Source of the DNA: a virus
Lineage: Duplodnaviria; Heunggongvirae; Uroviricota; Caudoviricetes
IMG/VR virus record: IMGVR_UViG_2909262264_000005
Direction: 5' to 3' (one strand)
Length of the DNA: 64,000 bases
Positions 698 to 57,300 of this stretch are shown here, piece by piece; within the stretch, counting starts at the first letter, position 1, and the number at the start of each line of letters is the position of its first letter. A program made the position numbers and the translations under genes. The notes under the pieces are model-generated. The model was not told the origin of the DNA. It did no database searches and was given only the letters and a program-made list of their open reading frames with translations.

Positions 698-1060
698 GGG
701 GCTGATTCTGGATTCGACGGGATTTGCGAAACCCAAGGTGCATGCCGAGGGGCGGTTGGCCTCGTAAAAAGCCGCAAAAAATAGTCGCAAACGACGAAAA
801 CTACGCTTTAGCAGCTTAATAACCTGCTTAGAGCCCTCTCTCCCTAGCCTCCGCTCTTAGGACGGGGATCAAGAGAGGTCAAACCCAAAAGAGATCGCGT
901 GGAAGCCCTGCCTGGGGTTGAAGCGTTAAAACTTAATCAGGCTAGTTTGTTAGTGGCGTGTCCGTCCGCAGCTGGCAAGCGAATGTAAAGACTGACTAAG
1001 CATGTAGTACCGAGGATGTAGGAATTTCGGACGCGGGTTCAACTCCCGCCAGCTCCACCA
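698..1060 (+). ncRNA. ssrA: tmRNA (SsrA)
   Basis: Starts GGGGCTGATTCTGGATTCGACGG, ends GGGTTCAACTCCCGCCAGCTCCACCA; internal tag reading frame gcaaacgacgaaaactacgctttagcagcttaa encodes ANDENYALAA-stop. Confidence 0.95.
1034..1060 (+). repeat. 27-bp att core at ssrA 3' end (left junction of tandem prophage array)
   Basis: cgggttcaactcccgccagctccacca is repeated exactly at 45414-45440 next to an integrase gene. Confidence 0.75.
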
Positions 1061-1577: not shown

Positions 1578-2162
1578 TTACATTGTGTCTGGTCCTTCCG
1601 GCCACTCAATATCAGGTGCAGTTGATGTATCAACACGGTTCAGCAACACCCGATACTTCTTCCAGGCTTCCAGCAACGAGTTTTCTTCCTCCGTTGCAAT
1701 TTCCAGATCTGCAGCATCCTGAAGCGGCGCAATATGCTCACTGGCTACCTGCATCAGGTTGTTTTTTGTTTCTTCCGCCTCCCGGATCCGGAACAGTTTT
1801 TCTGCTTCCGTATCCTTCACCCAGGCTGTGCCGTTCCACTTCTGAAACTCCCCTTCCGGCGATAACCAGGTAACATTTTCCGGTAACGGACCGAGTTCAG
1901 AAATAAATAACGCGTCCCCTGACGCTACGTCATAAACCGTTTTACCCCGATGGTCTTCAACGAGATGCCACGATGCCTTATCACTGTTGAAAACAGCCAC
2001 AAAGCCAGCAGGAATATCTGGTGGTGCAATATCGGTACTGTTTGCTGGCAGACCTGTATGAGGCGGAATATATGCGTCACCTTCACCAATAAATTCATTA
2101 GTTCCGGCCAGCAGATTATAAATTTTTATGGTCCGTGGTTGTTCACTCATTCTGAATGCCAT
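1578..2162 (-). CDS. Tail fibre assembly protein (Tfa)
   Basis: 194-aa ORF directly downstream of the tail fibre gene; near-identical copy at 49601-50185. Confidence 0.8.
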
Positions 2163-4996
2163 TATGCAAGCCTCACAATATAGTTAAATGCGATGTTTTT
2201 GACGGTGTTTTCCGCGTTACCAGCAGCGTTAACGGTGATGGTGTGTCCATGTGAACCAATCGCAACGGAGTGCGTATGAGCACCAATACCGACAGTATGC
2301 GCGTGTGCACCTGCAGATGCTGCTGTGCCGGACAGTGAATGGCTATGATTACCATCTGTACTGGTATTCGCTAACCACCCCGTAGACATACCTACTGAGC
2401 CTTGTACACCCCAGGTATTTTGACCTGAGCTTGTATAACCATATTGATAAGTATCTTTAAAAACACTGGGGTTAAATCGACGGCCATCTCTATGGCTGTG
2501 ATTACCAGCTGCATTCGTGCTGCCACTTAAACTATGGGTATGCGCACCAGTGTTATTCGTGGATTTAGTGCCGTAATCAAACGACGATGTGGTTTTCGTC
2601 CCCAAATCCGTACTGGATGCGCTGGCGCTGTGGGTATGCGATTTAATGCCGTCCTGTTCCTGAGACAATACGGCCCGACCACTGGCAGGTTTGCCCTTAA
2701 TCGTCCAGCCACGCATATCAGGGATCACGCCTGACGGATAAGCGGCTGCAAGTTTCGGGTATGCAGATTTGTCAAAAGTCTGCCCCTGCATCAGGGCATA
2801 GCCAGACGGAACGGTATCTGATGGCCACGGGATTGGTGCGCCAGGCGGATAAAACTGCTCTGATGGCGTATAGAGTGAATAAACTGTACCGTCCGTTAAC
2901 CCTTCCGGCTTATTAGCAGAATATGCTGGTGACGTATGAATCGTCACGCTGGCATTACTGGTATAATCCCATTGAATATTTACACCAGTCGCATAATTTC
3001 CGATTGCAACGTAAATATCGTAAGTATCACCAGATGTATTGACCCAGGCAAAATTTGTAAACCCTGTCGATGTGCGCTGCCATAAAGCACCAGTAATCCC
3101 CTTCGGATTACCATTACCTGCACGTAAAACAAGTTCAGATATACCTGCCTGTTGAGGTGACCCCACGTTAAATCCAGCGCCACCAATCAACGTAATTGAA
3201 ACAACAGAACTCGCCTGTGGCATGGTTACCGTTGCTAATTTGAACCAACCAGCACCACCGCTGAATGACATTGTTGTTGAGTTAAGCGTACCAATATCTT
3301 TCGGCGTCAGTGTTATATCCGCTGAAAGCGCCTTACCATTCACCTTACGGGCAGAAGGTACCCGACCATTCGCATTGTCATTAGCTGCTTTCACTGCTTT
3401 CGGTGTCGCAGCAAGCGTTTCAGATGTGCTGTTGGTTGCACTACTGAGCTGGACAATTCCTTTCTGTGCTGTCGTTGCATCCTGTGCGGTGTATTTCCCG
3501 TTAGCCAGGTCATACGCGGCCTTAACGGCTTTTGGCGTTGCCGCCTGTGACTCGGAAGTGCTGTTGGTCGCACTGCTGAGCTGTACTATCCCCTTTTTCG
3601 TCGTGCTCGCATCCTCAAGCGCCACGGCGGATGCAATATCCTCTGCCCGTTTTGCTGCTGTCTCGGCGCGCGTTGCCGCGGATTCCGCCGTACTTTTGCT
3701 CTGTGCTGCCGCTGCCGCACTGCCAGCAGCCTCTGTCGCCTTCGTGGATGCCGTCGTGGCGCTGCCCCTCGCTGCTGACGCCTGTCTGGTCGCCTCATCT
3801 TTTGAAGCAGACGCAGATGATGCCGATGACGCCGCCGAACTGGCGGACGATGCGGCAGCCGTTTTTGAGGATTCTGCGCTGGTTTCCGACGCTTTCGCGT
3901 TCGTTTCGGATGTCTTCGCTGCGGAAGCAGACCTCGCTGCTGCGCTGGCCTGTTCAGTGGCTTCGCCAGCCTTCGTTGTGGCTGTTGAAGCAGACGATGC
4001 GGCACTTTCTGCCGACTTTCCGGCAGCGGTGGCACTGGCTGAGGCCTGCCCGGCACTTGTTGACGCGGCGCTGGCAGATGATGCAGCCGCTGTTTTTGAG
4101 CCTGCCGCAGCCGAGGCGCTCTGTCCCGCTGCCGTTTCAGAAGACCTGGCGTTCGTCTCGGACGTTTTTGCCGCCTTCGCGGAATTTCCTGCCGCCGTTG
4201 CCGAGGAAGCGGCACTACTGGCGCTTGATGATGCGTTCGTTTCTGATGATTTTGCCGCCTCTTTTGAAGCCGACGCATCCCGTGCTGAAGTGGCTGCTTC
4301 TGACGCTTTCGTAGTCGCGGTGGATGCAGAAGTGGCTGCTGATTGTTGTGACGCTGCCGCATTCGTTTCTGACGTTTTCGCCGCACCGGCACTGGTAGCC
4401 GCCGCGCTTTTTGAGGACTCTGCAGCGGCAGCACTTTTTAATGCTTCAGTGGCCTTTGTTGATGCCGTTCCTGCGCTGGAAGACGCTGACTGAGCCGACG
4501 AAGCAGCCTGTCCGGCTGACGTGCTGGCTGCGCGTGCTGAGCCTGCAGCATCAGTCGCATGGGTTGCCGCCTCACGGGCTGATGTGCTGGCATCGCTGGC
4601 TGACTTCTTCGCGGCTGCCGTGTTCTGTGCCACCGCGGACGCGTTACGCGCCACCTCTTCCACCATCAGTTCAAAACGGCGCAGTGCCTCAGGACGGGCA
4701 TCATCCTCCGTCATGGCACCGAGAAAATCATTCAGCGTACCGGGTCGGGAATCTTCATACACGGTGATGGTCCCGGCATGTGACGGCGGGAATCCTTCCA
4801 CCAACAGAATAACGCTGTACTGACCGTACTCAACGTCCATGCTGTAACGCCCGGCTTCATCCGGATTTTCTGAGGCCAGCGTGTTCACCACCACCGTGGT
4901 ACTGTTACGTTTTGCTTTCAGCTGGATTGTGCAGTTCTGTACCGGTTTTCCTGTGCCGTCTTTCAGTACACCTGAAATCTTTACTGCCATATTCAC
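2162..4996 (-). CDS. Side tail fibre protein
   Basis: 944 aa; long Ala/Ser/Thr-rich repetitive rod region; C-terminal His-rich HSHSLSG/HAHTVG motifs typical of lambdoid tail fibres. Confidence 0.85.
3400..4650. repeat. GC-rich tandem coding repeats (Ala/Ser/Thr-rich) inside tail fibre gene
   Basis: Repetitive gcngcn-type codon runs; produce long artefactual ORFs in other frames and on the opposite strand (3222-4493, 3586-4434). Confidence 0.6.
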
Positions 4997-5054: not shown

Positions 5055-5654
5055 TCAGAATTTATAACCGACACCCACGATGAAACCGTCAGTGCGCCAG
5101 TCGCCACTGCCGGAACCTTCATAAGCGACATCAACGGCCACGGATTCGGTCGGGTTAAACTGCACGCCAGCCCCCCACGCCAGAGACGTGTTGCTGTGGC
5201 GACCGTCATCACTTCCGATCAGCACATCGTGCGTTTTCCCCGTATTGTCGGTCACCTGCAGATAATCCCCGGAGAAAGTCGACACACGGCTGTAAGCCAC
5301 ACCCGCCATCGCATACGCGCTGAACCATTCATTCACGCGCACAGACGGCCCCGCCATCACGCTGAACCAGCGGTTACGCACGGAATCTTCATGCCAGCGG
5401 GTATCGCTGTAATGCGTTTTTTGCTCATCTTCAGCGTTGGCATAACTGAATGACGTAATCAGCCCCAGCGTGTCCGTAAACTCATAACGGTATTTCACGT
5501 TAATCCCGTTCAGATTATCGCTGCCGGGAGCGTTCGTACGGGCATGAAGATACCCTGCGCTCAGTGTGGCCTGCTGCTCAGACGCCCATGCAGGCGCACC
5601 GGATACGGCCAGACAGATGGCTGCGGACAAAATGGCTGCACAAACTTTACGCAT
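5055..5654 (-). CDS. lom: Lom-like outer-membrane protein (Ail/Lom family)
   Basis: 199 aa with signal peptide, beta-barrel-like composition, C-terminal ...[10 protein letters not shown]; located between J and tail fibre as in lambda. Confidence 0.8.
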
Positions 5655-5721: not shown

Positions 5722-8700
5722 TCAGCTGATACTGATGCCTGCGGTGGCTTTCTTCATCACCACAACCAGCAAATCGCTGATACTTGCTGTGGGATACCAG
5801 TCATTTACCAGCCACGCTGACACCGAAAACTCCAGCGTCATGTGACCGTGACCAGCCGGCATATCAATAACACCACTGTAAATCAGCGTATTATCCAGCG
5901 CGGTACGGTTATAAATTTCAGCGCCGTTTTTCCGTACGATCAGACGGCATGAGGAGTAAATATCAGTATGCTCTTTCTCATGTTTAGCGCCACTGAATGC
6001 CACCGCCGGAATAACAATCTGCCGGTCAAACGGCTGATCGTCATAAACCCTGACGGTAATGGTTCCTGATGGCCACCGCTCCGGTGCACGGGAGTCCCGG
6101 GGGAAAGCTTTGCCCACTGTTTTAACGAGATCGCCTTCAATCTGGTTCGCGGACAGTTTTCCCAGAACCCGACAGTTCTCGTTAATCGTGACGTTGTTGA
6201 GCGTCCCGGAGTTCGCATTCACGTTACCGCTGATATCGGCATTTTTCGCCGTCAGCCGTCCGTCCGGTGTCAGGGAAAATGCCGGAGGATTACCGCCGCT
6301 GGTAATGGTCGGAGCCGTCAGGCGTTTCAGGAACACGTCGTTCATGAATATCTGATCGCCCTGACCAACAAACATTGGTCTTGTGTTGCCATTAGACGGA
6401 TCAATAAACGCGATACGGTTAGCGGCAACCAGGAACTGGCTCAGTTTGCCTTCCTCCGTATCCTCCATGCTGAGGCCAATACCCGCGACATAATGTTTGC
6501 CGTCTTTGGTCTGCTCAATTTTGACGCCCCACATGGCATTCCACTTATCACTGGCGTCCTTCCACTCTTTCGAAAACTCCTCCAGTTTGCTGGCGTTATC
6601 CTCCGTCAGCTCGACTTTTTCCAGCAGCTCCTTGCCGAGATGGGATTCGGTTATCTGGCCTTTGAAAAAATCCAGGTAACCTTCCGCATCATCGCTCGCC
6701 CGACCAACAGCCTCCACGAATGCCGATTTGCCAACGGTGTTCACACTGCGGATATAAAAGTAATAATCATGGCCCGGTTTGATATTGATACTGGCGGCTA
6801 TCCAGTACAGCGCCGTACCAAGATAGCGGGCTGTGGTTTCAACCTGCCTGATATCGGTAATCCGCTTTTCCGAGAACCAGAACTCAAACTGTACCGTCGG
6901 ATCATAAACCGCAAGATGCGGCGTGGCGGTGATCTGAAAATAGCCCGGCGTCAGCTCAATCCGCGACGGCGCTGCCGGTGCGGCAATCCGGAACGATACC
7001 GACGCCGGATCGCCCTGCTGTCCCCACGCATTTACCGCCCGGACTGTCAGCCTGTAGTTTCCCAGCGCCAGCTGCCTGAAGCGGTATGTGGTTTCCGTCG
7101 TCCGGGCCGTGCTGACCAGCCGCTCACTGCCGTCATCCGCTGCCACGGCCAGGCGAAGCAGGAAGCTCACGCCCTTCACCACCTTCGGCGTGTCCCAGCG
7201 CGCCAGCACCTGATATTCCCCGCTGTCTGCGGTGACTTCTGCGGTCAGGTGCTGCACTGCTGGCGGCGTGACACCATTCACCGTGCCGCTCTGGTCGCCG
7301 TCAAAGTGCGCCCCGTTATCCACGATGGCCTCTTTTTCCGGTACATGCTGCACGGCGGTGATGGCATACGTGCCGTCATCGTTCTCACGGATACTCACGC
7401 AGCGGAACAGGCGCTGGCGCAGCGTCGGCAGCTTCAGCCCCCACACGCTGTATTCAGCAACACCGTCAGGAACACGGCTCACTTTCACCTTCACGCCGTC
7501 GGTGACGGACTGGACCTCCACGCTGACCGGATTGCCATTTCCGTCAACCAGGCTTATCAGCGTGGTACCGGAGGATGGCAGCGTGATTTCACGGTCGAGC
7601 GTCAGCGTCCGGGTCTGGCTGTTCACCGCCAGCACGCGACCACCGGTGCTGATACCGGCATAGTCATCATCGCAGATTTCAATGACATCGCCCGGTACAT
7701 GGCGAAGCCCTTCAGCACCCACGCTGAAATCCACGGTCTGCGTCTCCAGCAGTTCCGTTTTAATCAGCCACAGCCCGGCGCGGTGTGCCTGCCCCCGGCT
7801 GGTACAGCCAAAGGCATCCATCTTCGTGACATTACGACCGTAACGGGCAATGGCCTGCGTATCTTCAACAAGCTCTGTCGCCGTCTCCCAGCCGTTGTTC
7901 GGGTCAATCCAGTTCACCTCAACGGCATTATGGCGGTCCTTCAGGGCGCTGAAGCTGTAGCGGAACGGCGCGCCATCATCCGGCATCACCACATTACTGC
8001 GGTTATAGGTCCACACCTTATCCGACGGTCGGTCCTGCACGAACGTCAGCGTCTGCCCGTTCCATACCGGCATACAGCGCATCGCCGAGCAGAAATCACT
8101 GAGCACATCCCACGCCTTGCGCTGTGTGGTCAGGTACGCATTACAGGTGATGCGCGGCTCCGTGCCGCCAAAGCCGTCCGGCACTGACTGGTCGCAGTAC
8201 TGGCCGATGACATACAGCGCCCATTTGTCCACATCCGCCGCACCAAGACGTTTCCCCATGCCGTAGCGCGGGTGGGTCAGCATATCCCACAGACACCAGG
8301 CCATGTTGTTGCTGTATGCTGGTTTTAACGTTCCGTCCCAGATACCGCTGTATTGTCGCGTCTGCGGGTTATAGTTCGACGGCACCTGCAGAATGCGCCC
8401 GCGAAGATGATAATTACGACTCACCTGCTGGCTGCCGAACTGCTCCGAGTCCACCTGTACGCCGACCAGTGCAGTGTTCGGGTAGCACTGTTTCACATCG
8501 ATGATTTCGGTGTATGACGACCAGAGCGTTTTGTTCTGCAGCTGGTCTGTGGTGCTGTCCGGCGTCATCCTGCGCATCCGTATATTGAACGGGCGCGGCG
8601 GCAGGTTACCCACCACCACCGAGGCCAGATACTGCGAGGTGGTTTTGCCCTTAATGGTGATGTCTTTTTCCGTCACCCAGCCACCATTACGCTGGATCTG

Positions 8701-9117
8701 AACCAGCAGGCGGACTTCCGACGGATTCCGGTCCCCCTTTGAGGTGGTTTCCACCAGTGCCTGCACACCGAAGGTAAAGCGCAGACGGTCGATGTTTGCA
8801 GACGTGATGGTCCGGGTAATCGGCGTGTCGTACTTCACTTCCGTACCCAGCACCGTCTCGGAGCCGGAGGATTCAAATCCCTCCGGCGGTGTCTGCTCCT
8901 GCTCACCGGCCCGGAAAACCACCGTGACACCGGAGATATTGGTATTCCCCTCACTGTCCAGCACCGGCGTACTGTTCAGCAGCACGCTTTTTAATCCGTC
9001 CACCGGACCTTCAACCGGCCCTTCACTGATGGCGTCTATCACGCTCAGCATCTGGGATGATTTCAGGTTGTCCTTCGCTTCGCGCGGGGTATGCCCCTTA
9101 CTGCTGCCTTTACCCAT
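5722..9117 (-). CDS. Host specificity protein J (central tail fibre)
   Basis: 1131 aa; position and length as lambda gpJ; paralogue at 54314-57796. Confidence 0.9.
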
Positions 9118-9177: not shown

Positions 9178-9819
9178 TCAGCGACCAATCACCACAACCT
9201 GACCACCATCCCCTTCGTCTGCCGTGCTGATCTCCTGAGAGACCACCCGCGACCCCACGCGCATTTCACCGTACAGAACGGGCAGAACATTGCCCTGGGC
9301 AACCATATTATCCAGTGAAGAAAAATAGGTGTTCTGTTTGCCGTTATCCGTTGTCTGTGTGCGGGGGGTTTTGGGTTTAGGAGCCAGCATCTGTGCAACA
9401 CCGCCAAGCGTCATACTGGCACCGAGAGAAAAAAGCAGATTACTCGCCATTATTCCTACCCCCGGCATCCATATAGCAACCGCCATAACAGCAGCTCCCA
9501 GCACTGCCTGAAACACACCGCCACTTTTGGCTCCTGCCAGACGCGGCACGATGTGGATCACTGCTCCATTCGCCAGCGGTTCATTAAGACGGGCTGATAA
9601 TTCGTTTTCGCCTGCATCACGCCCGGCAATGCGCACCTGATACCAGCCGTCGCTCAGTTTCTGACGAAACGCCGGAAACTGCATAGCCAGCGCCCGGATG
9701 GCTTCGGCTCCCGTTTTCACACGCAGATCGATGCGGCGACCAAATCGTTGTAAATCCCCGTAAAGGCAGATGCGTGCCATGCCCGGTGACGCCAGAGGGA
9801 GTGTGTGCGTCGCTGCCAT
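9178..9819 (-). CDS. Tail assembly protein I
   Basis: MAATHTLPLASPGMARICLYGDLQRFGRRIDLRVKTGAEA... recognised as lambda gpI-like. Confidence 0.8.
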   Translation of the reverse strand: MAATHTLPLASPGMARICLYGDLQRFGRRIDLRVKTGAEAIRALAMQFPAFRQKLSDGWYQVRIAGRDAGENELSARLNEPLANGAVIHIVPRLAGAKSGGVFQAVLGAAVMAVAIWMPGVGIMASNLLFSLGASMTLGGVAQMLAPKPKTPRTQTTDNGKQNTYFSSLDNMVAQGNVLPVLYGEMRVGSRVVSQEISTADEGDGGQVVVIGR

Positions 9820-10465: not shown

Positions 10466-11164
10466 TTACTGCGAAAGTTTGTTAATGGAAAGGAAGCCGC
10501 CAAAGTTGCCGACGTTATTGCGAAACTTACAGCCACTCAGGCATTTGCTGCATTTATCCTTCGTGATATCGGACGTCGGCTGATCATATTCATCCGCGAC
10601 AGCCGGACCGTGATAACCGCACTCATCACCGCGATAGGTCCAGGTGCAGGTGTTGGCCAGCATGATGCGCCCCGGAAAAACAGCGCCATCCGTTTCCGTC
10701 GGCGTGGACAGTACAAAAGAAGCACTGACCGCGCTCAGTTCGCTGCACTGCTCGATGCGCCAGCGGCTGATCACCTCCTGCTCCGGGTCGGCGTCACTGT
10801 TCCCGTTGACGAAGTTCACCGCATCCAGAAAACGGGCGTAAACCTTACGCCGGACCACCGTTCCGCCGACCAGACTCTGCAGATCTTCCGCCATCCCGGT
10901 GACCATGCCGTGCAGATTAGAGACTTTCAGCGTTGGCCTTGCACTGGCTCCTTTGCCGTTCATCTCAAATCCACTTCCCTGAATGGGATAGGCCTGATAC
11001 TGCCGCCCCTGCCAGGTGACTGGTTCACCTTTTTCGTTCTGCTCATTACAGAAGAAATAACGATCTCCGCCGACCTCTGTCAGATCAATTTCCCAGAGCA
11101 CGACCAGCGCGGATTGCTCCGTTTTAGTGCACTCATTGAGTGTTTCCTGCTGTATATCCTGCAT
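10466..11164 (-). CDS. Minor tail protein L
   Basis: 232 aa, same length as lambda gpL; Cys-rich C-terminus. Confidence 0.8.
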   Translation of the reverse strand: MQDIQQETLNECTKTEQSALVVLWEIDLTEVGGDRYFFCNEQNEKGEPVTWQGRQYQAYPIQGSGFEMNGKGASARPTLKVSNLHGMVTGMAEDLQSLVGGTVVRRKVYARFLDAVNFVNGNSDADPEQEVISRWRIEQCSELSAVSASFVLSTPTETDGAVFPGRIMLANTCTWTYRGDECGYHGPAVADEYDQPTSDITKDKCSKCLSGCKFRNNVGNFGGFLSINKLSQ

Positions 11165-11520
11165 CAGTGAGTGACCTCTTCAAAGGTACAGTTAAAATCG
11201 GTATACATAGCATTATCCGAAATGCTCCACTCCCTGCAGACAACCCGGACAGTCCTGTTGTGTTTTGGCGGACGCCACAAAAAAGCACGAATCCCGGCAT
11301 GACGGGATAAAAAACTGTCCAGCGCGGCACGGGAATATTCATCTGTGACACGAAATACCGGTTTAAACGTTTTCAGATCCGCATTCAGACCACCAGCCCG
11401 TCGCTGTTCATATCCGTCACCAAACTTTACCGTAATAACTGATGGCTTTCGTGTCGTCTCCATCCCCTCACGGGGGATCCAGTTAAAAACTTCAGGCTCA
11501 GGCACTGTATAATCCTCCAT
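11164..11520 (-). CDS. Minor tail protein M
   Basis: Conserved FGDGYEQRRAGGLN motif; start set at the MEDYTV ATG (listed ORF extends to 11550). Confidence 0.65.
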   Translation of the reverse strand: MEDYTVPEPEVFNWIPREGMETTRKPSVITVKFGDGYEQRRAGGLNADLKTFKPVFRVTDEYSRAALDSFLSRHAGIRAFLWRPPKHNRTVRVVCREWSISDNAMYTDFNCTFEEVTH

Positions 11521-26740: not shown

Positions 26741-26815
<75 letters not shown>

Positions 26816-27837
26816 ATACTGTACTGGCTTCCGGAATCACACGAATTACCAGGAAAGCCAGCACTGGTCCTTCAGACGATAGTAACGCCCCTGTGAACAC
26901 AAAAATAACCGTCTTCCGGACCAGTCAGAATACTAACGACAGTTTTTCAGACATCAAAAATATATTTGGTGTTCAGTTTTAAATATGTGTATACATATGT
27001 ATCAGAAATATACAACTTATATCATCACTGAATTAAAAATCTTTCGTTATTTCTCTGACCGTCTGATTAAAACGTTCCTCTTCCAGTTCCACGCCAATCG
27101 CCCTGCGTCCCAGCGACAGTGCCGCTTTTATTGTCGACCCCGACCCCATAAAAAAATCAGCAACCAAATCTCCCGGATGGCTGCTGGCGGTAATTATCTG
27201 ACGCAACATATCCGCCGGTTTCTCACAGGGATGTTTGCCGGGGTAATACTGCACAGGCCTGTGCGTCCAGACATCCGTATACGGAACAGCTGCCGATACG
27301 GAAAAATAACGCCGCAGGGATTTGTACTCTTCCAGCAGGCTGGCGTATTGACGGTTCAGTTCACTGTATGTGCTGACCAGCTGGTGGTGTGGCTTTTCCA
27401 GTTCCCCGCGCTGATGCTTTTCTGCTGCAACACGCGCAAACAATGCCTGCAGTTTTCTGTAATCAGCTTCGTTCGGTAACTGCCACTGACTGGCACCAAA
27501 CCAGTGCGAAGCCATATTTTTCTTTCCGGTGGCTTCCGCTATCTGTTTTGACGTTATTCCCAGTGATTCACGCGCATCACGAAAGTAAGAAATCAGCGGG
27601 GCCATGACGTGCTGTTTTAGCTCGCGCCCCTTTGCTGCAAAATGGCATCTAAATCGATCACGGTTTGGCATTCGAATCGATCATGATTTGGCATCCATCT
27701 CCGATCACAGTTTGGCATCACAATCGATCACGATTTGGCATGCTTCCGATCATTGATTGGCATCCTGCCAGTCACTCCGGGAATTAACTCTTTTCACCAC
27801 AGTCTTCATTGCCGTGTTTAAACCAGTGGAGACGGCA

Positions 27838-29403
27838 ATGTCCAGAAAGAGAAAATCCAGGAGCACTATGGAAACCTGTTTTAAGATCCTTCAGCTCAAG
27901 TTCGACCAGAAGCTGACTAACCGTTGTATCGGACTGACGTTACACATCAGCGCCTCAACCGTTTTTGAGGTTCTTGCACGCTTCAAAGCCTCTTCTCTGT
28001 CATGGCCATTACCTGCTGATATATCCCATGACACGCTGGAGAAACTCATTTACCCGCCCAAAGACACCTCTGCGTCAGAGCTTGTTATGCCTGACATGCT
28101 GTACTTCGATACGGAAATGAGAAAACCGGGCGTGACGCGCCAGCTGTTGTGGATGGAATACAAGGCACAGGCGAGTGACAAAGCGATGGGATACTCGCAC
28201 TTCTGCCGTTGCTACCGGGAGTGGAAAAAAACGCGACGCCTCTCCATGCGCCAGGAGCATCGTGCCGGCGAAAAGCTCTTTATCGACTTCTGCGGTCCTA
28301 CGGTTCCTGTTATTAATCCGGACACCGGAGAGATACGCCGCGTGGCAATCTTCGTGGCCGTGATGGGGGCATCCAACTATACCTACGTTGAAGCGTGCGA
28401 AGGTCAGGACATGATGTCATGGTTAAATGCCCACAGCCGTTGCCTGACCTTCCTGGGCGGCGTGCCGAAGCTGCTCATCCCCGATAATCTCAAAAGTGCA
28501 GTCAAAAAAGCCGATCGCTATGAGCCTGTCATCAACGACAGTTATCAGGCGCTGGCTGAGCACTATGGCACGGTTATTATCCCGGCCCGCCCGCGCAAAC
28601 CTAAAGATAAACCAAAAGCAGAAAACGGCGTCCTCATCGTCGAACGATGGCTTCTTGCCCGCATCCGTAATGAAACCTTCCACACGCTCAGGGCGCTGAA
28701 TGCGCGCCTTCGGGAGTTACTGACGGACATGAATAACCGGCCAATGAAGGGGTACGGCAATCAAACCCGTGCAGAACGCTTCCGCATGCTGGATGCGCCA
28801 GCACTCTCTCCGCTGCCTCTGGCACCTTATGAATACACGGAATACAAAGCCGTGAAGGTTGGCCCTGACTATCACGTTGAATATGCCCGTCACTGGTACT
28901 CCGTTCCACACGAACTGGTCGGTCAGCGTCTGTCACTGAAGGCGGGGCAGTCTGTGGTACAACTCTGGCACAAGGGGCAGTGTGTGGCGCAACATCCGCG
29001 CAGCACACATGAATATAAACACACAACCAATCCGCTTCACATGCCAGAGCGCCACCGGCAGCACGGGACATGGACACCGGAACGCCTGATCGAGCAGGGG
29101 AAACGTACGGGCCCGTCCACAGGCCGGGTGGTTGAATCCATGCTGAAGGCAAAACCCCATCCGGAACTGGCTTATCGTGCAGTTCTGGGGCTGCTGGCAC
29201 TTCAGAAAAAATACGGCCCGGAACGACTGGAAAAGGCCTGTTACGTTGCCCTGCACTATAACGCCCCTGACAGACGCTTTATCGACAATCTGCTGCGTCA
29301 CCATCGGGAGAACCTGGAGCTTCCATTATCCCGCCAGGGCGAACAACATCCGACATATGCTTCAGAGCATGAAAACCTGCGTGGTCCGGGCTACTACCAC
29401 TGA
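27838..29403 (+). CDS. istA: IS21-family transposase IstA
   Basis: N-terminal HTH then DDE-type core; GGAG RBS before ATG 27838 (listed ORF starts at 27757). Confidence 0.85.
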   Translation: MSRKRKSRSTMETCFKILQLKFDQKLTNRCIGLTLHISASTVFEVLARFKASSLSWPLPADISHDTLEKLIYPPKDTSASELVMPDMLYFDTEMRKPGVTRQLLWMEYKAQASDKAMGYSHFCRCYREWKKTRRLSMRQEHRAGEKLFIDFCGPTVPVINPDTGEIRRVAIFVAVMGASNYTYVEACEGQDMMSWLNAHSRCLTFLGGVPKLLIPDNLKSAVKKADRYEPVINDSYQALAEHYGTVIIPARPRKPKDKPKAENGVLIVERWLLARIRNETFHTLRALNARLRELLTDMNNRPMKGYGNQTRAERFRMLDAPALSPLPLAPYEYTEYKAVKVGPDYHVEYARHWYSVPHELVGQRLSLKAGQSVVQLWHKGQCVAQHPRSTHEYKHTTNPLHMPERHRQHGTWTPERLIEQGKRTGPSTGRVVESMLKAKPHPELAYRAVLGLLALQKKYGPERLEKACYVALHYNAPDRRFIDNLLRHHRENLELPLSRQGEQHPTYASEHENLRGPGYYH

Positions 29404-29419
29404 CAGAAGGAACAACAGT

Positions 29420-42099: not shown

Positions 42100-42288
42100 A
42101 TGAGATTGTATTTCAGAATAGTAATTTTACTGGCAATTATCGCATGCATTTACGGACTACTCGTCCCGTTCCTTATATCCATGAAGGATACGGTAGCAGT
42201 CATTTCCGGCTTTGCACTGGCGTTTCTGACCCCGCCCTGCATTTATGCCATTTACAAGGGTCTTTCTTTCACTAAGGGTAAAAGATGA
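42100..42288 (+). CDS. Small membrane protein (62 aa, two predicted TM helices)
   Basis: Hydrophobic segments ILLAIIACIYGLLVPFLI and ISGFALAFLTPPCIYAI; stop overlaps start of SPFH gene. Confidence 0.5.
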   Translation: MRLYFRIVILLAIIACIYGLLVPFLISMKDTVAVISGFALAFLTPPCIYAIYKGLSFTKGKR

Positions 42289-43944: not shown

Positions 43945-44154
43945 GTGGGGCTGGATTGCGTACCTATATCAACCTACTGCCGCAACGCAGGAGAAACGGT
44001 TGATGCCGTTAACAAACGGATACAAAGAGGAATATGGAAAGAAGGGGTACATGTATTAAAAGTCGACGGAGTTAAAGAACGTTGGGTCGACTTAATGGAG
44101 ATTACAAAATGGGCAAGAAAGAACAAGGATCATTATCTCTCCCTAGAGGAGTAA
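43945..44154 (+). CDS. xis: Excisionase (Xis-like)
   Basis: 69-aa basic protein with GTG start after GAGGTG; overlaps integrase start. Confidence 0.6.
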   Translation: MGLDCVPISTYCRNAGETVDAVNKRIQRGIWKEGVHVLKVDGVKERWVDLMEITKWARKNKDHYLSLEE

Positions 44155-45413: not shown

Positions 45414-45440
45414 CGGGTTCAACTCCCGCCAGCTCCACCA
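45414..45440 (+). repeat. 27-bp att core (junction between prophage A and prophage B)
   Basis: Exact copy of ssrA 3' end; flanking sequence resembles the phage arm next to ssrA. Confidence 0.75.
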
Positions 45441-45598: not shown

Positions 45599-45674
45599 CC
45601 CTTAAGTTCCTAGCCGCTTATCTATAACTATGGAAAAATGTTAACCCTGACTGTATGTTAACAAAGGGATGTAT

Positions 45675-46883: not shown

Positions 46884-46888
46884 GCTGA

Positions 46889-46911: not shown

Positions 46912-46917
46912 ATGTTC

Positions 46918-49600: not shown

Positions 49601-50185
49601 TTACACGGTGTCTGGTTCTTCTGGCCACTCAATATCCGGTGCAGTTGATGTATCAACACGGTTCAGCAACACCCGATACTTTTTCCAGGCTTCCAGCAAT
49701 GAGGTTTCTTCCTCCGTTGCGATTTCCAGATCTACAGCATCCTGAAGTGGCGCAATATGCTCACTGGCTACCTGCATCAGGCTGTTTTTTGTTTCTTCCG
49801 CCTCTCGGATCCGGAACAGTTTTTCTGCTTCTGCATCTTTCACCCAGGCTGTGCCGTTCCACTTCTGAAACTCCCCTTCCGGCGATAACCAGGTAACATT
49901 TTCCGGTAACGGACCGAGTTCAGAAATAAATAACGCGTCCCCTGACGCTACGTCATAAACCGTTTTACCCCGATGGTCTTCATCGAGATGCCACGATGCC
50001 TTATCACTGTTGAAAACAGCCACAAAGCCAGCAGGAATATCTGGTGGTGCAATATCGGTACTGTTTGCTGGCAGACCTGTATGAGGCGGAATATATGCGT
50101 CACCTTCACCAATAAATTCATTAGTTCCGGCCAGCAGATTATAAATTTTTATGGTCCGTGGTTGTTCACTCATTCTGAATGCCAT
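49601..50185 (-). CDS. Tail fibre assembly protein (Tfa)
   Basis: ~96% identical to the prophage A copy. Confidence 0.8.
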
Positions 50186-53100
50186 TATGCAAGCCTCACA
50201 ATATAGTTAAATGCGATGTTTTTGACGGTGTTTTCCGCGTTACCAGCAGCGTTAACGGTGATGGTGTGTCCATGTGAACCAATCGCAACGGAGTGCGTAT
50301 GAGCACCAATACCGACAGTATGCGCGTGTGCACCTGCAGATGCTGCTGTGCCGGACAGTGAATGGCTATGATTACCATCTGTACTGGTATTCGCTAACCA
50401 CCCCGTAGACATACCTACTGAGCCTTGTACACCCCAGGTATTTTGACCTGAGCTTGTATAACCATATTGATAAGTATCTTTAAAAACACTGGGGTTAAAT
50501 CGACGGCCATCTCTATGGCTGTGATTACCAGCTGCATTCGTGCTGCCACTTAAACTATGGGTATGCGCACCAGTGTTATTCGTGGATTTAGTGCCGTAAT
50601 CAAACGACGATGTGGTTTTCGTCCCCAAATCCGTACTGGATGCGCTGGCGCTGTGGGTATGCGATTTAATGCCATCCTGTTCCTGAGACAATACGGCACG
50701 ACCACTGGCGGGCTTGCCCTTAATCGTCCAGCCACGCAAATCAGGGATCACGCCTGACGGATAAGCGGCAGCAAGTTTCGGGTAGGCAGATTTGTCAAAA
50801 GTCTGCCCCTGCATCAGGGCATAACCAGACGGAACGGTATCTGATGGCCACGGGATTGGTGCGCCGACTGGGTAGCTTTCTGGTGGAAGATTTTTCGAGG
50901 TATAAACTTCTGCCCAGTCTTCCTCAAAACCATAGCCATCTCTTGAAGAACGGTAGAACAGACCACCATTTCTGTAATGCGCCTTCATCTGCAGGGTCCG
51001 GCAACTTCCGACTCCGGTATAGAAGTTAACCAGAATATAGCTGTCGCCAGAGCGGGTGACATTGTAAGCGCCTGATTCGGCATTCCAGGGAACGCCACCA
51101 TCCGCATCGGCATATGTATCCGTTGCCCTTCTGGCAAAAGCAGCCACATGCGCGGCGGTTAAAGTAATATCTTTGGAACCATCAAACTCAACACCAGAAA
51201 CCAGTCTTGGCGTTTGCAGCTTTGTTGCTGTTAATGCATTACCGTTCAGACTTGCGGACAGTTTGGTTCCAATAACCAGTTCGCCGGTTGCGTTATCAAT
51301 AGCAAACGGTCTTAATGTATTCCAGCCACCATAAACATCACCTTGATTGGTAAGCAGCAGGTAAGTTTTAGCGCCATCATTACGCCATAATGCCCCATAC
51401 TCCCCACCTATCATTCGAATCTGATTACCACCACGCGCTACAATTTCGTCTGTGGCAAAAAGTTTTTTGCACGACAAGTTATCGTTAACGATTAACGAAT
51501 GAGACTCATAAAAACCACGCCCACTCTTAAAATCAAGGATAACGTCCGCCGCGATACATTCAGTCGCCGGATTTGTTGCCCCAAACTTATAGGTCGTATC
51601 ATTAACAACGAGATCAGCACCAGGTGCGGATATTGACAGGCCATCTTCGATAAACGCAAAAACAGGGAAAGCAGCGCCATCAACATAGAACACAGAGCGC
51701 AAATCATCGCCCTTATTACTCATCATTATTGAGTGGATGGCTCGTTCATTGTTTTGATATTGCCAGAACATTCCATAAGCATAACGCCCCCTGTCAGTCC
51801 AGCCACCAGGCATAACAAATCCGTTAAACTCGCAGTTATTCATCGGATCGCCTGCGGTTCGCGGTGCCGTGGTGATAATGACCCTTGATGCCAGTTCGCT
51901 TACTGAGCCAGCAGAACGCATAACAACAACAGGGTAATATTTTCCAGATGTTGCACCTGCAGGAGCGTTAACCCGCACATAACGCATACCACGCTTATCA
52001 GCAAAGTCTGTTTTACTGACCGCGTTAATGTTGTTCAGGAAGCGTCCCTTATCGGGTATATCAGCGCCGTTCTGGTCTTTCTGCAGACGTTTCTCTGCAT
52101 TGTCATAGGCTGATTTTACTGCCTTTGGCGTTGCCGCCAGCGTTTCAGACGTACTGTTGGTCGCACTGCTGAGCTGTACTATCCCCTTTTTCGTCGTACT
52201 TGCATCCTCAAGCGCCACGGCGGATGCAATATCCTCTGCCCGTTTAGCTGCTGTCTCGGCGCGCGTTGCCGCGGATTCCGCCGTACTTTTGCTCTGTGCT
52301 GCCGCCGTCGCACTGCCAGCTGCCTCTGTCGCCTTCGTGGATGCTGTCGTGGCGCTGCCCTTCGCTGCTGACGCCTGTCTGGTCGCCTCATCTTTTGAAG
52401 CAGACGCCGATGATGCCGATGACGCCGCCGAACTGGCGGACGATGCGGCAGCCGTTTTTGAGGATTCTGCGCTGGTTTCCGACGCTTTCGCGTTCGTCTC
52501 GGATGTCTTCGCTGCGGAAGCAGACCTCGCTGCTGCACTGGCCTGTTCAGTGGCTTCGCCAGCCTTCGTTGTGGCTGTTGAAGCGGACGATGCGGCGCTT
52601 TCTGCCGATTTTCCGGCGGCGCTAGCACTGGCTGAGGCCTGCCCGGCACTTGTTGACGCGGCACTGGCAGATGATGCAGCCGCTGTTTTTGAGCCTGCCG
52701 CAGCTGAGGCACTCTGTCCCGCTGCCGTTTCAGAAGACTTAGCGTTCGTCTCGGACGTTTTTGCCGCCTTCGCAGAATTTGCTGCCGCCGTTGCCGAGGA
52801 AGCGGCACTACTGGCGCTTGATGATGCGTTCGTTTCTGATGATTTCGCTGCCTCTTTTGAGGCCGCCGCATCCCGGGCTGAGGTGGCAGCTTCTGACGCC
52901 TTCGTGGTCGCGGCGGATGCAGAAGTGGCTGCAGATTTTTGTGACGCTGCCGCATTCGTTTCTGACGTTTTCGCGGCACTGGCACTGGTAGCTGCCGCGC
53001 TTTTTGAGGACTCTGCAGCAGCAGCACTTTTCGATGCTTCAGTGGCCTTTGTTGATGCCGTTCCTGCGCTGGAAGACGCCTCCTGAGCCGAAGTCGCGGC

Positions 53101-53589
53101 CTGTCCGGCTGACGTGCTGGCTGCACGCGCTGAGCCTGCAGCATCAGTCGCATGGGTTGCCGCCTCACGGGCAGATGTGCCGGCATCGCCGGCTGACTTC
53201 TTCGCGGCTGCCGTGTTCTGTGCCACCGCGGACGCGTTACGCGCCACCTCTTCCACCATCAGTTCAAAACGGCGCAGAGCCTCCGGACGGGCATCATCCT
53301 CCGTCATGGCACCGAGAAAATCATTCAGCGTACCGGGTCGGGAATCTTCATACACGGTGATGGTCCCGGCATGTGACGGCGGGAATCCTTCCACCAACAG
53401 AATAACGCTGTACTGACCGTACTCAACGTCCATGCTGTAACGCCCGGCTTCATCCGGATTTTCTGAGGCCAGCGTGTTCACCACCACCGTGGTGCTGTTA
53501 CGTTTTGCTTTCAGCTGGATTGTGCAGTTCTGTACCGGTTTTCCTGTGCCGTCTTTCAGTACACCTGAAATCTTTACTGCCATATTCAC
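50185..53589 (-). CDS. Side tail fibre protein
   Basis: 1134 aa; shares N-terminal Ala-rich rod and C-terminal His-rich region with the prophage A fibre but has a different central segment. Confidence 0.85.
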
Positions 53590-53647: not shown

Positions 53648-54247
53648 TCAGAATTTATAACCGACACCCACGATGAAACCGTCAGTGCGCCAGTCGCCAC
53701 TGCCGGAGCCTTCATAAGCAATATCAATGGCCACGGATTCGGTCGGGTTAAACTGCACGCCAGCTCCCCACGCCAGAGACGTGTTGCTGTGGCGACCGTC
53801 ATCACTTCCGGTCAGCACGTCGTGCGTTTTCCCCTTGTTGTCAGTTACGCGGAGATAATCCCCGGAGAAAGTCGACACACGGCTGTAAGCCACGCCTGCC
53901 ATCGCATACGCGCTGAACCATTCATTCACGCGTACAGACGGCCCCGCCATCACGCTGAACCAGCGGTTACGCACGGAATCTTCATGCCAGCGGGTATCGC
54001 TGTAATGGGTCAGCTGGCGATTCTTGTCTCCTGCATAGCTGAACGACGTCACCATCCCCAGTGTGTCCGTAAACTCATAACGGTATTTCACGTTAATCCC
54101 GTTCAGATCATCACTGCCGGGAACGTTCGTCCGGGCATGAAGATACCCCGCGCTCAGCGTGGACTGATGTTCAGACGCCCATGCAGGCGCACCGGATACG
54201 GCCAGACAAATGGCTGCGGACAAAATGGCGGCATAAAGTTTACGCAT
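53648..54247 (-). CDS. lom: Lom-like outer-membrane protein
   Basis: 199-aa paralogue of the prophage A Lom. Confidence 0.8.
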   Translation of the reverse strand: MRKLYAAILSAAICLAVSGAPAWASEHQSTLSAGYLHARTNVPGSDDLNGINVKYRYEFTDTLGMVTSFSYAGDKNRQLTHYSDTRWHEDSVRNRWFSVMAGPSVRVNEWFSAYAMAGVAYSRVSTFSGDYLRVTDNKGKTHDVLTGSDDGRHSNTSLAWGAGVQFNPTESVAIDIAYEGSGSGDWRTDGFIVGVGYKF

Positions 54248-54313: not shown

Positions 54314-57300
54314 TCAGCTGATACTGATACCTGCTGTGGATTTTTTCATCACCACAACCAGCAGATCGCTGATACTGGTTGTTGGTGTCCAGTTATTCGC
54401 TCCTGATGAAGATACGGTGAATGTCAGTGTCAGCGTCCCCTGTCCGGCAGGCATATCTATAACTGAGGAAAATACGCCCTGAGCATCCGTCGTGGACTGA
54501 TTAAAAATCTCCTGACCATTGCGGGTCACTCTTAACCGGCAGGTTGAATACCAGTATGACTGTTGGTTATTACTGTTGAAATTCTCATGCTTACCACCGC
54601 GGAATAACACTGGCGGTATCATGACCTGCCGGTCAAATTTCTGATCATCACTGATTCTTACCGTGATGGTGCCACTGGCATAACTGTTCGTGCGGGGGAA
54701 AGACTTGCTGACCGTTTTGACAATATCGCCTTCAATCTGATTGGCTGACAGTTTCCCCTTAATCTGACAGTTCTCATTAATCGTGACATTGTTGAGCGTC
54801 CCGGAGTTCGCATTCACACTGCCACTGATATCCGCATTTTTAGCAGTCAGCTTTCCGTCCGGTGTCAGGGAAAATGCCGGAGGATTACCGCCGCTGGTAA
54901 TGGTGGGAGCCGTCAGATATTTCAGGAACACTTCATTCATGAATATCTGATCGCCCTGACCAACAAACATCGGCTTTGTGTTGCCATTCGCAGGATTAAT
55001 CATCGCAATCCTGTCTGCCGCCAGCAGCACCTGACTCTGCATGCCGTCGGGGGTGTTCTCAATACCGGCACCGATACCCGCAATATAAAGGCGTCCGTCC
55101 TGCATCTGCTGCAGCTTCACTGCCCACATGCTGTTCAGGTTATTATTTGTATCAACCTGAACCTTCTGTATCTGCTGGATCGCTGCACTCTGGTCTTCCA
55201 GTTTCTTATTGACGGTCTGTGTTATTTCATTGCTGACATCCGTTATGGACGTCCTGATTTCAGTCAGGTCAGGCGCAAGCTGACCGTTATCAATCTGCGT
55301 CCACAGCTCCTGAGCCAGATGGGTTTTCCCTATCTCGCCTTTGAAAAAATCCAGATAGCCTGATGCATCATCACTCGGCTGACCGACAGCCTCCACGAAT
55401 GCCGATTTGCCAACGGTGTTCACACTGCGAACGTAAAAATAATAATCATGGCCCGGTTTGATATTGATACTGGCGGCTATCCAGTACAGCGCCGTACCAA
55501 GATAACGCGCGCTGGTTTCAACCTGCCTGATATCGGCAATCCGCGTTTCCGAGAACCAGAACTCAAACTGTACCGTCGGATCATAAACGGCAAGATGCGG
55601 TATGGCGGTTATCTGAAAATAGCCCGGCGTCAGCTCAATCCGCGACGGTGCTGCCGGTGCGGCAATCCGGAACGATACCGACGCCGGATCGCCCTGCTGT
55701 CCCCACGCATTTACCGCCCGGACCGTCAGCGTGTAACGCCCCAGCGCCAGTTGCCTGAAGCGGTATGTGGTTTCCGTCGTCCGGGCCGTGCTGACCAGCC
55801 GCTCACTGCCGTCATCCGCTGTTACGGTCAGACGGAGCAGGAAGCTCACGCCCTTCACCACCTTCGGCGTGTCCCAGCGCGCCAGCACCTGGTATTCCCC
55901 GCTGTCTGCGGTGACTTCTGCGGTCAGGTGCTGCACTGCTGGCGGCGTGACACCATTCACCGTGCCGCTCTGGTCGCCGTCAAAGTGCGCCCCGTTATCC
56001 ACGATGGCCTCTTTCTCCGGCACATGCTGCACAGCGGTGATGGCATACGTGCCGTCGTCATTCTCACGGATACTCACGCAGCGGAACAGGCGCTGGCGCA
56101 GCGTCGGCAGCTTCAGCCCCCACACGCTGTACTCGGCAACGCCGTCAGGAACACGGCTCACTTTCACCTTCACGCCGTCGGTGACGGACTGGACCTCCAC
56201 GCTGACCGGATTGCCACTTCCGTCAACCAGGCTTATCAGCGTGGTACCGGAGGATGGCAGCGTGATTTCACGGTCGAGCGTCAGCGTCCGGGTCTGGCTG
56301 TTCACCGCCAGCACGCGCCCGCCGGTGCTGATACCGGCATAGTCATCATCACAGATTTCAATGACATCGCCCGGTACATGGCGAAGCCCTTCGGCACCCA
56401 CGCTGAAGTCCACGGTCTGCGTCTCCAGCAGCTCCGTTTTAATCAGCCACAGCCCGGCTCGGTGTGCCTGCCCCCGGCTGGTACAACCAAAGGCATCCAT
56501 CTTCGTGACATTACGACCGTAACGGGCAATGGCCTGCGTGTCCTCCACAAGCTCTGTCGCCGTCTCCCAGCCGTTGTTCGGGTCAATCCAGTTCACCTCA
56601 ACGGCATTATGGCGGTCTTTCAGGGCGCTGAAGCTGTAGCGGAACGGCGCGCCATCATCCGGCATCACCACATTACTGCGGTTATAGGTCCACACCTTAT
56701 CCGACGGTCGGTCCTGCACGAACGTCAGCGTCTGCCCGTTCCATACCGGCATACAGCGCATCGCCGAGCAGAAATCACTGAGCACATCCCACGCCTTGCG
56801 CTGTGTGGTCAGCCAGGCATTACAGGTGATGCGCGGCTCCGTGCCGCCAAAGCCGTCCGGCACCGACTGGTCGCAGTACTGGCCGATGACATACAGCGCC
56901 CATTTATCCACATCCGCCGCACCAAGACGTTTCCCCATGCCGTAGCGCGGATGGGTCAGCATATCCCACAGACACCAGGCCATGTTGTTGCTGTATGCCG
57001 GTTTAAACGTTCCGTCCCAGATACCGCTGTATTGCCGCGTCTGCGGGTTATAATTCGACGGCACCTGCAGAATACGCCCGCGCAGATGATAATTACGGCT
57101 CACCTGCTGGCTGCCGAACTGCTCCGAGTCCACCTGCACGCCGACCAGTGCCGTGTTCGGGTAGCACTGTTTCACATCGATAATTTCGGTGTATGACGAC
57201 CAGAGCGTTTTGTTCTGCAGCTGGTCTGTGGTGCTGTCCGGCGTCATCCTGCGCATCCGGATACTGAACGGGCGCGGCGGCAGGTTATCCACCACCACCG

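Follow-up and report, generated by a model that had tools for sequence, protein, structure and literature searches.

The question raised by this locus is whether two similar prophages lying next to each other differ in the proteins by which they adsorb and, if they do, whether they use different receptors. The window (the whole stretch of DNA analysed, 64,000 nucleotides) comprises two neighbouring lambda-like (lambdoid) prophages, A and B, at ssrA. The first-pass annotation treated them as separate prophages with mosaic central fibres (J) and side tail fibres (Stf), directed to different receptors. The features are collected in Table 1.

Table 1. Adsorption genes, their modules and the attachment cores of prophages A and B (positions in the window)
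Feature	Position	Strand	Basis or remark
ssrA 3' end (att core), left boundary of prophage A	1036..1060	+	tmRNA at 698-1060; 25-mer repeated exactly
stf tip (collar and His-rich gp37-like needle) with tfa, A	1578..2842	-	common to B; 97.9% blastn
stf, A, 944 aa from GTG	2162..4996	-	PF08400, two PF03406 repeats, PF07484; probable true ATG start 4990
stf variable central shaft module, A, about aa 497-718	2843..3508	-	no blastn match to B
lom, A, Ail/Lom outer-membrane protein	5055..5654	-	Pfam PF06316, E = 4e-125; within conserved block between J and stf
J, A, tip attachment protein/central tail fibre, 1131 aa	5722..9117	-	ORF; Pfam; lambda J identity
J RBD, A, aa 986-1131, 1A2 type, OmpC binding inferred	5722..6162	-	PF12421 at aa 1001-1131; published gpJ 1A2
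J conserved beta-prism block, A, aa 926-985, with TINENC	6163..6342	-	recombination linker
J variable module 1, A, alpha-helical shaft and beta-prism top, aa 816-925	6343..6672	-	short lambda type; lambda J match
Second ssrA 3' core, prophage A/prophage B junction	45416..45440	+	exact 25-nt repeat
stf tip with tfa, B, common to A	49601..50865	-	alignment to A
stf, B, 1134 aa from GTG	50185..53589	-	PF08400, PF21446 (Gp34_trimer), PF07484
stf variable central shaft module, B, about aa 497-908	50866..52101	-	Mu S/S' colinearity
lom, B	53648..54247	-	Pfam PF06316
J, B, 1160 aa	54314..57796	-	ORF; Pfam architecture as in A
J RBD, B, A8 type, predicted OmpC binder	54314..54757	-	identity to 'A8 gpJ 713'
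J conserved beta-prism block, B	54758..54937	-	alignment to A
J variable module 1, B, long shaft type	54938..55351	-	135/138 identical to FORC_029 J

Tandem integration of A and B at ssrA is marked by the duplicated 25-nt att core, by the prophage A integrase (44082-45281) located next to the second core, and by single occupancy in relatives: in E. coli MB06171 and other genomes prophage B directly adjoins ssrA at the equivalent point. The two prophages are thus separate elements, as first annotated. The far end of prophage B lies outside the window.

Long tracts of 93-100% identity make tandem prophages difficult to assemble, and the A/B junction occurred in 0 of the 5426 complete genomes searched, so the apparent chimeras could be imagined as misjoined copies. 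Such an assembly artefact is highly improbable, since every module and each whole gene occurs intact elsewhere. The J-lom region of B is 100% identical in MB06171, M16807 carries the complete C-terminal region of J from A at 98.5% identity, and stf of A is 98.9% identical in EC11. All open reading frames are intact, and the junction falls exactly at the duplicated att core.

Both J genes encode proteins of the lambda gpJ family. Six Pfam domains (PF13550, PF24801, PF24421, PF24489, PF09327 and PF12421) occur in both in the lambda J order, all above cut-offs. The domain series (names after PMC11101478) is complete in A and B and includes the hub (Phage-tail_3), FNIII-A, two Ig/FNIII domains, the tail-tip fibre and the C-terminal Ig-like receptor-binding domain (RBD). 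The C-terminal 300 aa match lambda J chains with E values of 1e-97 to 1e-127 (phmmer). The surrounding gene cluster (L-K-I-J-lom-stf-tfa) is colinear with that of lambda, and Lom, Stf and Tfa were confirmed by Pfam. Lambda gpJ (P03749; PDB 8IYK, 8XCJ, 8XCK), encoded within the same gene order I-J-lom-stf-tfa and built of the same domain series, is about 98% identical to both proteins over aa 1-815 and to that of A over aa 1-925 (102/110 in the shaft), whereas its RBD is about 43% identical to those of A and B (63/147) and the shaft of B is 29 aa longer. Lambda binds LamB; these RBD types bind OmpC.

Comparison of the two J proteins with each other gives 86% identity overall, near-complete to about aa 815 and patchy beyond (BLASTP). 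Over aa 1-815, 2344 of 2445 nt are identical (96%), and the codon differences in aa 1-810 comprise 70 synonymous vs 19 non-synonymous ones. In the following shaft segment identity is 217/414 nt (52%) and 58/138 aa, with 29 extra aa in B. The prism block is 88% identical (159/180 nt), is conserved in lambda also and includes the position (lambda J aa 964) at which gpJ chimeras were fused. The RBDs, with 217/382 identical nucleotides (57%) and 90/151 identical residues, are homologous, and the J end with lom is again similar (679/748 nt, 91%). Corresponding blastn blocks join A 11166-6620 to B 59851-55300 (92.8%), A 6414-6098 to B 55009-54693 (86%) and A 5805-3509 to B 54397-52102 (94%). The claim that the J proteins are near-identical N-terminally and then diverge around a conserved block was therefore retained, with the alignment boundary at about aa 815. 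The single divergent C-terminus of about 300 aa was replaced by two separate variable modules and a conserved stretch of the last ~25 aa.

Uniform divergence along the proteins, the outcome opposed to mosaicism, was refuted. With a 100-bp sliding window, each edge appears as a drop in identity from 95-100% to 15-60% that is complete after one or two windows. For every boundary claimed, a Fisher test between the adjoining segments gave a P value in the range 1e-14 to 1e-241; adjacent segments with no claimed boundary between them did not differ significantly. Three-way alignment demonstrates that A is like lambda in the shaft and unlike it in the RBD.

The modules are also reassorted. All four combinations of shaft and RBD were found: short/1A2 in A, long/1A2 in FORC_029, short/A8 in phage Lambda_2H10 and long/A8 in B (the RBD types are discussed below). 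In the set of 5426 E. coli genomes from which partial-coverage classes were derived, 819 of the 4580 records matching the C-terminal query from A cover at least 80% of it, and the rest match its 5' or 3' part only. Some two-piece matches with 84 extra bases correspond to a long shaft with the RBD of A, and the query from B produced the mirror pattern. Mosaic boundaries and reassortment are thus observed directly, and recombination rather than local divergence explains the pattern, because in other phages and genomes each shaft type is combined with each of the RBD types. The proposed module exchange at conserved junctions agrees with the sharp edges and the four combinations.

The variable segments could instead have arisen in place by accelerated point mutation under diversifying selection. 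Receptor-binding proteins are known targets of such selection, and lambda J gained the use of OmpF by point mutations in this RBD during experimental evolution, according to work cited in PMC11101478. An origin without recombination is nevertheless contradicted by the four combinations, and we give it almost no credence. The 29-aa shaft indel also opposes it, as do the position of variable DNA of 52-57% identity beside flanks of 88-96%, and the contrast in A between a shaft ~93% identical to lambda and an RBD 43% identical. The same is true of the Stf centres, which are non-homologous, unequal in length and related to parts of P1, T-even, Mu and P2 fibres.

Receptor use could be approached through two described gpJ variants, A8 and 1A2 (PMC11338833; 9wca, 9wcb). 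The RBD of B is 100% identical to A8 gpJ (PDB 9wca/9wcb, chain 'A8 gpJ 713'); aa 958-1160 of the B protein are identical to residues 226-428 of 9wca_J, and in 9wcb A8 gpJ is co-deposited with OmpC. It is also identical (147/147) to the RBD of J from phage Lambda_2H10 (LR595862, Glaedevirus). In this phage both the J RBD and the Stf centre match B, the shaft is short as in A, and the Stf tip shares only 76% identity with that of A and B; the phage is a further recombinant.

The RBD of A belongs to the 1A2 type. In a frame-independent check, 157 of its 170 C-terminal residues were found as exact 4-mers in the published 1A2 DNA, the corresponding numbers being 59 (B) and 31 (lambda); direct identity is limited to these residues and to the FORC_029 proxy, because letters are missing from the machine-read PDF that supplied the 1A2 sequence. 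J of E. coli FORC_029, which bears the 1A2-specific N and T residues, is identical to the A RBD at 144 of 146 positions, and two real substitutions (D/N and S/T) near the C-terminus separate A from 1A2. Low identity to 1A2 obtained by tblastn against the noisy published DNA was discarded as misleading, its cause being frameshifts. Three 17-18-mers of the A RBD had no exact-string match in the Nature supplement, where the 1A2 segment is recoded and letters are dropped. At least 95% identity to this RBD was found in 53 phage records.

Work by Broedel et al. (Nature 2024; PMC11338833) established that A8 or 1A2, when carried on lambda particles by fusion at lambda J aa 964, mediates DNA delivery via OmpC and not LamB; delivery to a strain without lamB and ompC needs supplied ompC. 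Among the 23 OmpC alleles tested, most were usable by both variants, with overlapping, non-identical ranges; the K-12 (MG1655) OmpC works for A8 and fails for 1A2. The engineered fusion lies at the same conserved block as the natural junction. The proteins studied there were lambda chimeras and had the lambda-type short shaft; the J genes described here are native, and that of B encodes the long shaft, which may influence receptor triggering. In phage 434 and the EHEC phage phi330 (PMC12502783), J is likewise a lambda-like central fibre, and its C-terminal Ig-like domain is directed at OmpC. The phage 434 RBD is about 40% identical to that of A, and the h434 group about 41-44% to that of B; these represent other alleles for the same porin.

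We infer from these matches that phages A and B use the same receptor protein, OmpC. The earlier proposal was that A and B recognise different molecules (e.g., LamB vs OmpC or FhuA), given that they differ in the J RBD as well as in Stf. It could draw on the 90/151 identity of the RBDs and on the use of different porins by related RBDs (LamB by lambda, OmpC by 434; PMC11101478, PMC12502783). Failure of 1A2 on MG1655 OmpC, where A8 works, would on some hosts make A and B phages behave as if their receptors differed. Yet both RBD types are OmpC-dependent (PMC11338833), the A8 RBD identical to that of B has been solved with OmpC, and the Stf tips and Tfa are common to A and B. Different receptors are thus unsupported as stated, and this reading seems to us improbable. 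Since both RBD types use OmpC, the difference between A and B likely concerns which OmpC alleles are recognised and not which receptor is used.

The side tail fibres have a similar construction. Both possess the PF08400 N-terminal attachment domain, the collar, the gp37-like His-rich tip and an adjacent Tfa gene. About 496 N-terminal aa are common (1424/1600 nt), the centres agree at 324 of 1129 nt, and the tips at 674 of 690 nt (229/234 aa in the protein) with tfa at 568 of 585 nt. The distal block (A 2842-1529, B 50865-49552) is 97.9% identical by blastn, and comparison of the centres of A and B returned no significant similarity (best E = 0.19). Common N- and C-terminal regions with unrelated centres had already been noticed, and the centres can now be placed more precisely (Table 1). 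The relatives of the A centre are aa 630-808 of Stf from the P1-like phage JL22 (85%) and aa 822-924 of T2 gp37, in mid-shaft; sequence search found no PDB relative for it. The B centre is colinear with aa 148-410 of Mu S/S' together with the C-terminal trimerisation domain of T4 gp34, is related to P2 H, and is 99.8% identical to that of Lambda_2H10 Stf.

With respect to the Ur-lambda fibre (PMC12617516), the N-terminal anchor/coiled coil is about 80% identical to orf-401, the tip 71% to aa 70-314 of orf-314, and Tfa about 95%. The junctions map to R393 and S528 of lambda Stf, which are the modular boundaries and published fusion points; on the left the junction falls in a PF03406 repeat, and on the right where the collar domain begins. 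In lambda the counterpart of the variable part is the hinge and distal coiled coil at aa 394-528 (PMC12617516), aa 394-525 being assigned to these two elements. No homologue of this region is present, and neither centre aligns with it: its place is taken by unrelated modules, which measure about 220 aa (A) and about 410 aa (B) as compared with about 135 aa in lambda. The Stf tip is the receptor-binding part in lambda, and the 97-98% identity of tip and Tfa in A and B argues for the same Stf receptor. Judged from sequence, Stf specificity should be shared, with only fibre length or geometry differing. The centre would have a structural role in both fibres; the central module may also have a receptor-binding role, the A module being without a solved relative.

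The whole pattern is best accounted for by homologous recombination in short conserved linkers, which would have moved adsorption modules between lambda-like phages and, in the case of Stf, also between unrelated phages that bear fibres. J would then consist of an invariant hub/FNIII body (aa 1-815), a swappable shaft, the prism linker and a swappable Ig-like RBD. Stf would combine a conserved anchor and proximal coiled coil with a swappable hinge/distal shaft (gp37/P1-like in A; Mu S, P2 H and gp34-like in B) and a tip with its chaperone Tfa. That A and B are tandem lambdoid prophages with interchangeable modules, both of whose RBD types bind OmpC with overlapping allele ranges, is in our judgement quite probable.

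A bolder proposal is that A and B are functionally complementary. The two RBDs would divide the OmpC allele space, in which A8-only and 1A2-preferring alleles exist. The Lc-type porin of prophage A (lc-like gene at 31523-32620) would remodel porin expression and exclude OmpC-dependent superinfection, including that by B-type phages. Through their different shaft lengths, J and Stf would set the order in which side and central fibres make contact. If so, A and B would form a natural two-key host-range system kept by polylysogeny. Literature searches on the PA-2/Lc link to OmpC and on receptor data for the PhiR phages yielded nothing usable. We consider the proposal as a whole improbable.

Mosaic receptor-binding proteins in lambdoid phages are known, as are the A8 and 1A2 RBD alleles. 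Haggard-Ljungquist in 1992 and Sandmeier in 1994 reportedly described tail-fibre mosaicism among P2, Mu, P1, lambda and T-even phages, with exchange at conserved motifs; A and B represent another instance of the same kind. The mosaic finding opens no new question, and the RBD alleles are partly solved structurally. Its value is mainly in annotation: OmpC can be predicted as the receptor for A and B. The natural junctions (the J prism block near lambda aa 964; R393 and S528 in Stf) are those used to retarget lambda-based delivery particles.

The stf tip and tfa also contain a 690-bp tract of perfect identity (A 2650-1961, B 50673-49984). Recent gene conversion between A and B was considered for this tract (P about 3e-9 against the J background) and is possible. 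EC11 is, however, also identical over 2023-2650, and only at a cluster of nine sites at 1846-2022 does A equal B and differ from EC11; the tract is for this reason mostly a widely shared tip allele.

The tail gene clusters of A and B, the two lambda-like prophages lying in tandem at ssrA, are both of the lambda type and are carried by the minus strand. According to Pfam, J(A) (1131 aa) and J(B) (1160 aa) possess the whole lambda-gpJ series: hub, FNIII-A, two Ig-like domains, PF09327 tail-tip fibre and C-terminal PF12421 receptor-binding domain (RBD). Each side tail fibre (Stf) combines a prophage tail-fibre N-terminal domain with a collar domain, and Pfam also identifies Lom and Tfa.

Features of prophages A and B and of the adjoining ssrA site
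Feature	Coordinates	Strand	Remarks
smpB and tmRNA gene ssrA	1-1060 (ssrA 698-1060)		left edge of window
tfa (A)	1578-2162	-	
stf (A)	2162-4996	-	
PF03406 tail-fibre repeats of stf (A), two copies	3372-3483 and 3484-3600		[24 protein letters not shown]
Long ORFs antisense to stf	3222-4493 and 52157-53086	+	Ala/Ser-rich coiled-coil region
lom (A)	5055-5654	-	
J (A)	5722-9117	-	followed by I, K and L in cluster A
tRNA-Gly (UCC) gene	26741-26815	-	within prophage A
IS21-family element	27757-30175	+	prophage A; IstA transposase (548 aa), IstB helper ATPase
Porin gene, intact	31523-32620	+	prophage A; 365 aa
SPFH/Band-7 family protein	42285-43112	+	close to prophage A integrase end
EcoRII-type restriction endonuclease	45669-46883		prophage B, between att core and tfa
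Dcm-like C5 methylase	46918-48393	-	prophage B, partner of EcoRII-type endonuclease
LEM-3-like GIY-YIG protein	48758-49531		prophage B, between att core and tfa
tfa (B)	49601-50185	-	
stf (B)	50185-53589	-	
lom (B)	53648-54247	-	
J (B)	54314-57796	-	

J(A) and J(B) are 86% identical overall, with a strong pattern along their length. In J, identical/aligned positions number 2344/2445 at aa 1-815, 217/414 with an 87-bp indel at aa 816-925, 159/180 at aa 926-985, 217/382 at aa 986-1105, and 679/748 over the end of J together with lom; the values are 1424/1600, 324/1129 and 674/690 for the N-terminal part, centre and tip of stf, and 568/585 for tfa. Four conserved blocks were found by blastn, the gaps between them falling within both J and stf, and in a 100-bp sliding window identity drops from 95-100% to 15-60% inside one or two windows at every edge. 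Neighbouring segments differ at all claimed boundaries (Fisher P 1e-14 to 1e-241) and nowhere else. The mosaic boundaries are sharp, which confirms the observation of the first-pass annotation. The C-terminal divergence of J described there is real, but it comprises two variable modules with the [11 protein letters not shown]...TINENC block between them, and the last ~25 aa are conserved; the two RBDs are homologous (90/151 identical), not unrelated. The stf centres, said to be unrelated, indeed have no significant similarity, but their bounds are better set at 2843-3508 (A) and 50866-52101 (B).

Domains of J were assigned by alignment of the A, B and lambda proteins, with the published map of Ge and Wang (PMC11101478) as reference. 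The first variable module comprises the alpha-helical shaft and the beta-prism top, the conserved block is the lower beta-prism, and the second variable module is the Ig-like RBD. The shaft of A is like that of lambda J (102/110); that of B is another form, 29 aa longer and identical to A at 58/138 positions. The RBDs of A and B are each only ~63/150 identical to that of lambda. A PDB sequence search matched the C-terminal 203 residues of J(B), without a single difference, to the chain "A8 gpJ 713" of entries 9wca and 9wcb, the latter containing OmpC as well; an experimental structure of this RBD therefore exists. The published gene of the other OmpC-dependent variant, 1A2, is recoded and was machine-read from the supplement with errors; exact 4-mers nevertheless recover 157 of the last 170 residues of J(A), compared with 59 in J(B) and 31 in lambda J. 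A natural J protein of E. coli FORC_029 has the 1A2-specific residues, and its RBD is identical to that of A at 144/146 positions. Both RBD alleles are common: for each, 44-53 phage records match at 95% identity or more, ECOR-derived lambdoid phages and long-tailed Stx phages among them.

Local divergence and recombination could be told apart by the combinations in which these modules occur. A short shaft is joined to a 1A2 RBD in J(A), to an A8 RBD in phage Lambda_2H10 (147/147 to B) and to a LamB-type RBD in lambda, and a long shaft is joined to an A8 RBD in J(B) and to a 1A2 RBD in FORC_029 (shaft 135/138 to B). Shaft and RBD modules of J assort independently. Among matching records from complete E. 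coli genomes, the C-terminal 979 bp of J(A) are covered to at least 80% in just 819 of 4580; the remainder match at the 5' or the 3' part alone, or in two pieces spanning 84 extra bases, and the B query gives the mirror-image pattern. Codon differences in the conserved J body are mostly synonymous (70 versus 19 non-synonymous). The variable segments contain indels and near-saturated DNA divergence. These patterns reflect module exchange at conserved linkers, as had been suggested.

In Stf, the N-terminal part of A and B is ~80% identical to lambda orf-401 and the tip is 71% identical to orf-314 aa 70-314; Tfa is ~95% identical to its lambda counterpart. With Ur-lambda Stf residue n equal to orf-314 residue n-460, the left junction (A aa ~500) corresponds to lambda R393, and the right junction (A aa ~714, B aa ~904), located at the collar-domain start, to S528. 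K1F, K5, KL106 and P2 fibres have been grafted onto lambda Stf exactly at R393 and S528 (PMC11338833). In Ur-lambda Stf, aa 394-422 form a hinge and aa 423-525 a distal coiled coil, the receptor-binding part lying further on (PMC12617516), so the variable centre is a shaft module. The A centre matches the Stf of P1-like JL22 (85%) and the mid-shaft of T2 gp37 (aa 822-924 of 1341). The B centre is 99.8% identical to Lambda_2H10 Stf; it is also colinear with aa 148-410 of Mu S, with P2 H and with the C-terminal trimerisation domain of T4 gp34. The single PF03406 copy of stf(B) reads like a hybrid of the two in A, which places the left recombination junction inside this repeat. Mosaicism of this general kind, the RBD alleles of both prophages, the Stf shaft type of B and the positions of the junctions have all been described before.

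The proposal that the prophages target different receptors is not borne out, since both J RBDs are of experimentally characterised OmpC-binder types and the Stf tips are common to A and B. With tips identical at 229/234 residues and tfa at 568/585 nt, the same Stf ligand would be expected. Chimeras with the A8 and 1A2 gpJ variants (Broedel et al., Nature 2024, PMC11338833) delivered DNA to cells lacking lamB and ompC only once ompC was supplied. Most of 23 OmpC alleles were usable by both (source data, PMC11338833); A8 alone works with G1 and G2, 1A2 is clearly better with G55, G56 and G67, neither works with G40, and 1A2, unlike A8, fails with K-12 OmpC (PMC11338833). The realistic functional difference between A and B would be the set of OmpC alleles recognised. 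Fibre geometry may differ too; B carries the long shaft, which the published chimeras lack.

The porin of prophage A shows 94.8% identity to the PA-2 porin Lc and 97% to what remains of NmpC in phage 434, and it scores above the NCBIfam OmpC-subfamily cut-off. Phage PA-2 uses OmpC, and its lysogens swap OmpC for Lc. The porin could have a role in lysogenic conversion or superinfection exclusion, consistent with an OmpC-directed J.

A and B are separate prophages in tandem, as the first-pass annotation had taken them to be. The final 25 nt of ssrA have an exact second copy at 45416-45440, just past the integrase gene (44082-45281); this delimits prophage A at ~1061-45440 and prophage B from 45441. 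B sequence alone adjoins ssrA directly, at the same base, in E. coli MB06171 and numerous further genomes; the A/B junction was found in 0 of 5426 complete genomes searched. The genes of prophage B at 45669-49531 are defence cargo, placed where lambda has its b region. The IS21-family insertion sits between the lysis and late-regulation regions of prophage A and may inactivate it.

A and B are perfectly identical over 690 bp covering the tip of stf and the first half of tfa (1961-2650 = 49984-50673); one mismatch is followed by 144 further identical bases. EC11, the nearest relative of stf(A), is also identical across 2023-2650, and at 1846-2022 nine sites have A = B with EC11 different. Gene conversion between A and B across the tract is possible, the evidence being weak because the tract is largely common to an unrelated genome too.

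At the 5' end of gene L (10950-11166; 59640-59851) A-B identity drops to 74-80%, and it vanishes upstream. The tape-measure ORFs are unlike (1075 vs 1034 aa; sole blastn match 72 bp), so the tails share the tip module only. Repetitive GC-rich codons most likely account for the ORFs antisense to stf, which would then be artefacts rather than genes. Gene I (tail assembly/plug protein) diverges sharply over a short patch at ~9340-9520 (A) and ~58020-58200 (B), corresponding to aa ~105-160 with a 2-aa indel, the rest of the protein being near-identical. In lambda gpI this region contains H1 and H2, two helices for which membrane activity has been proposed.
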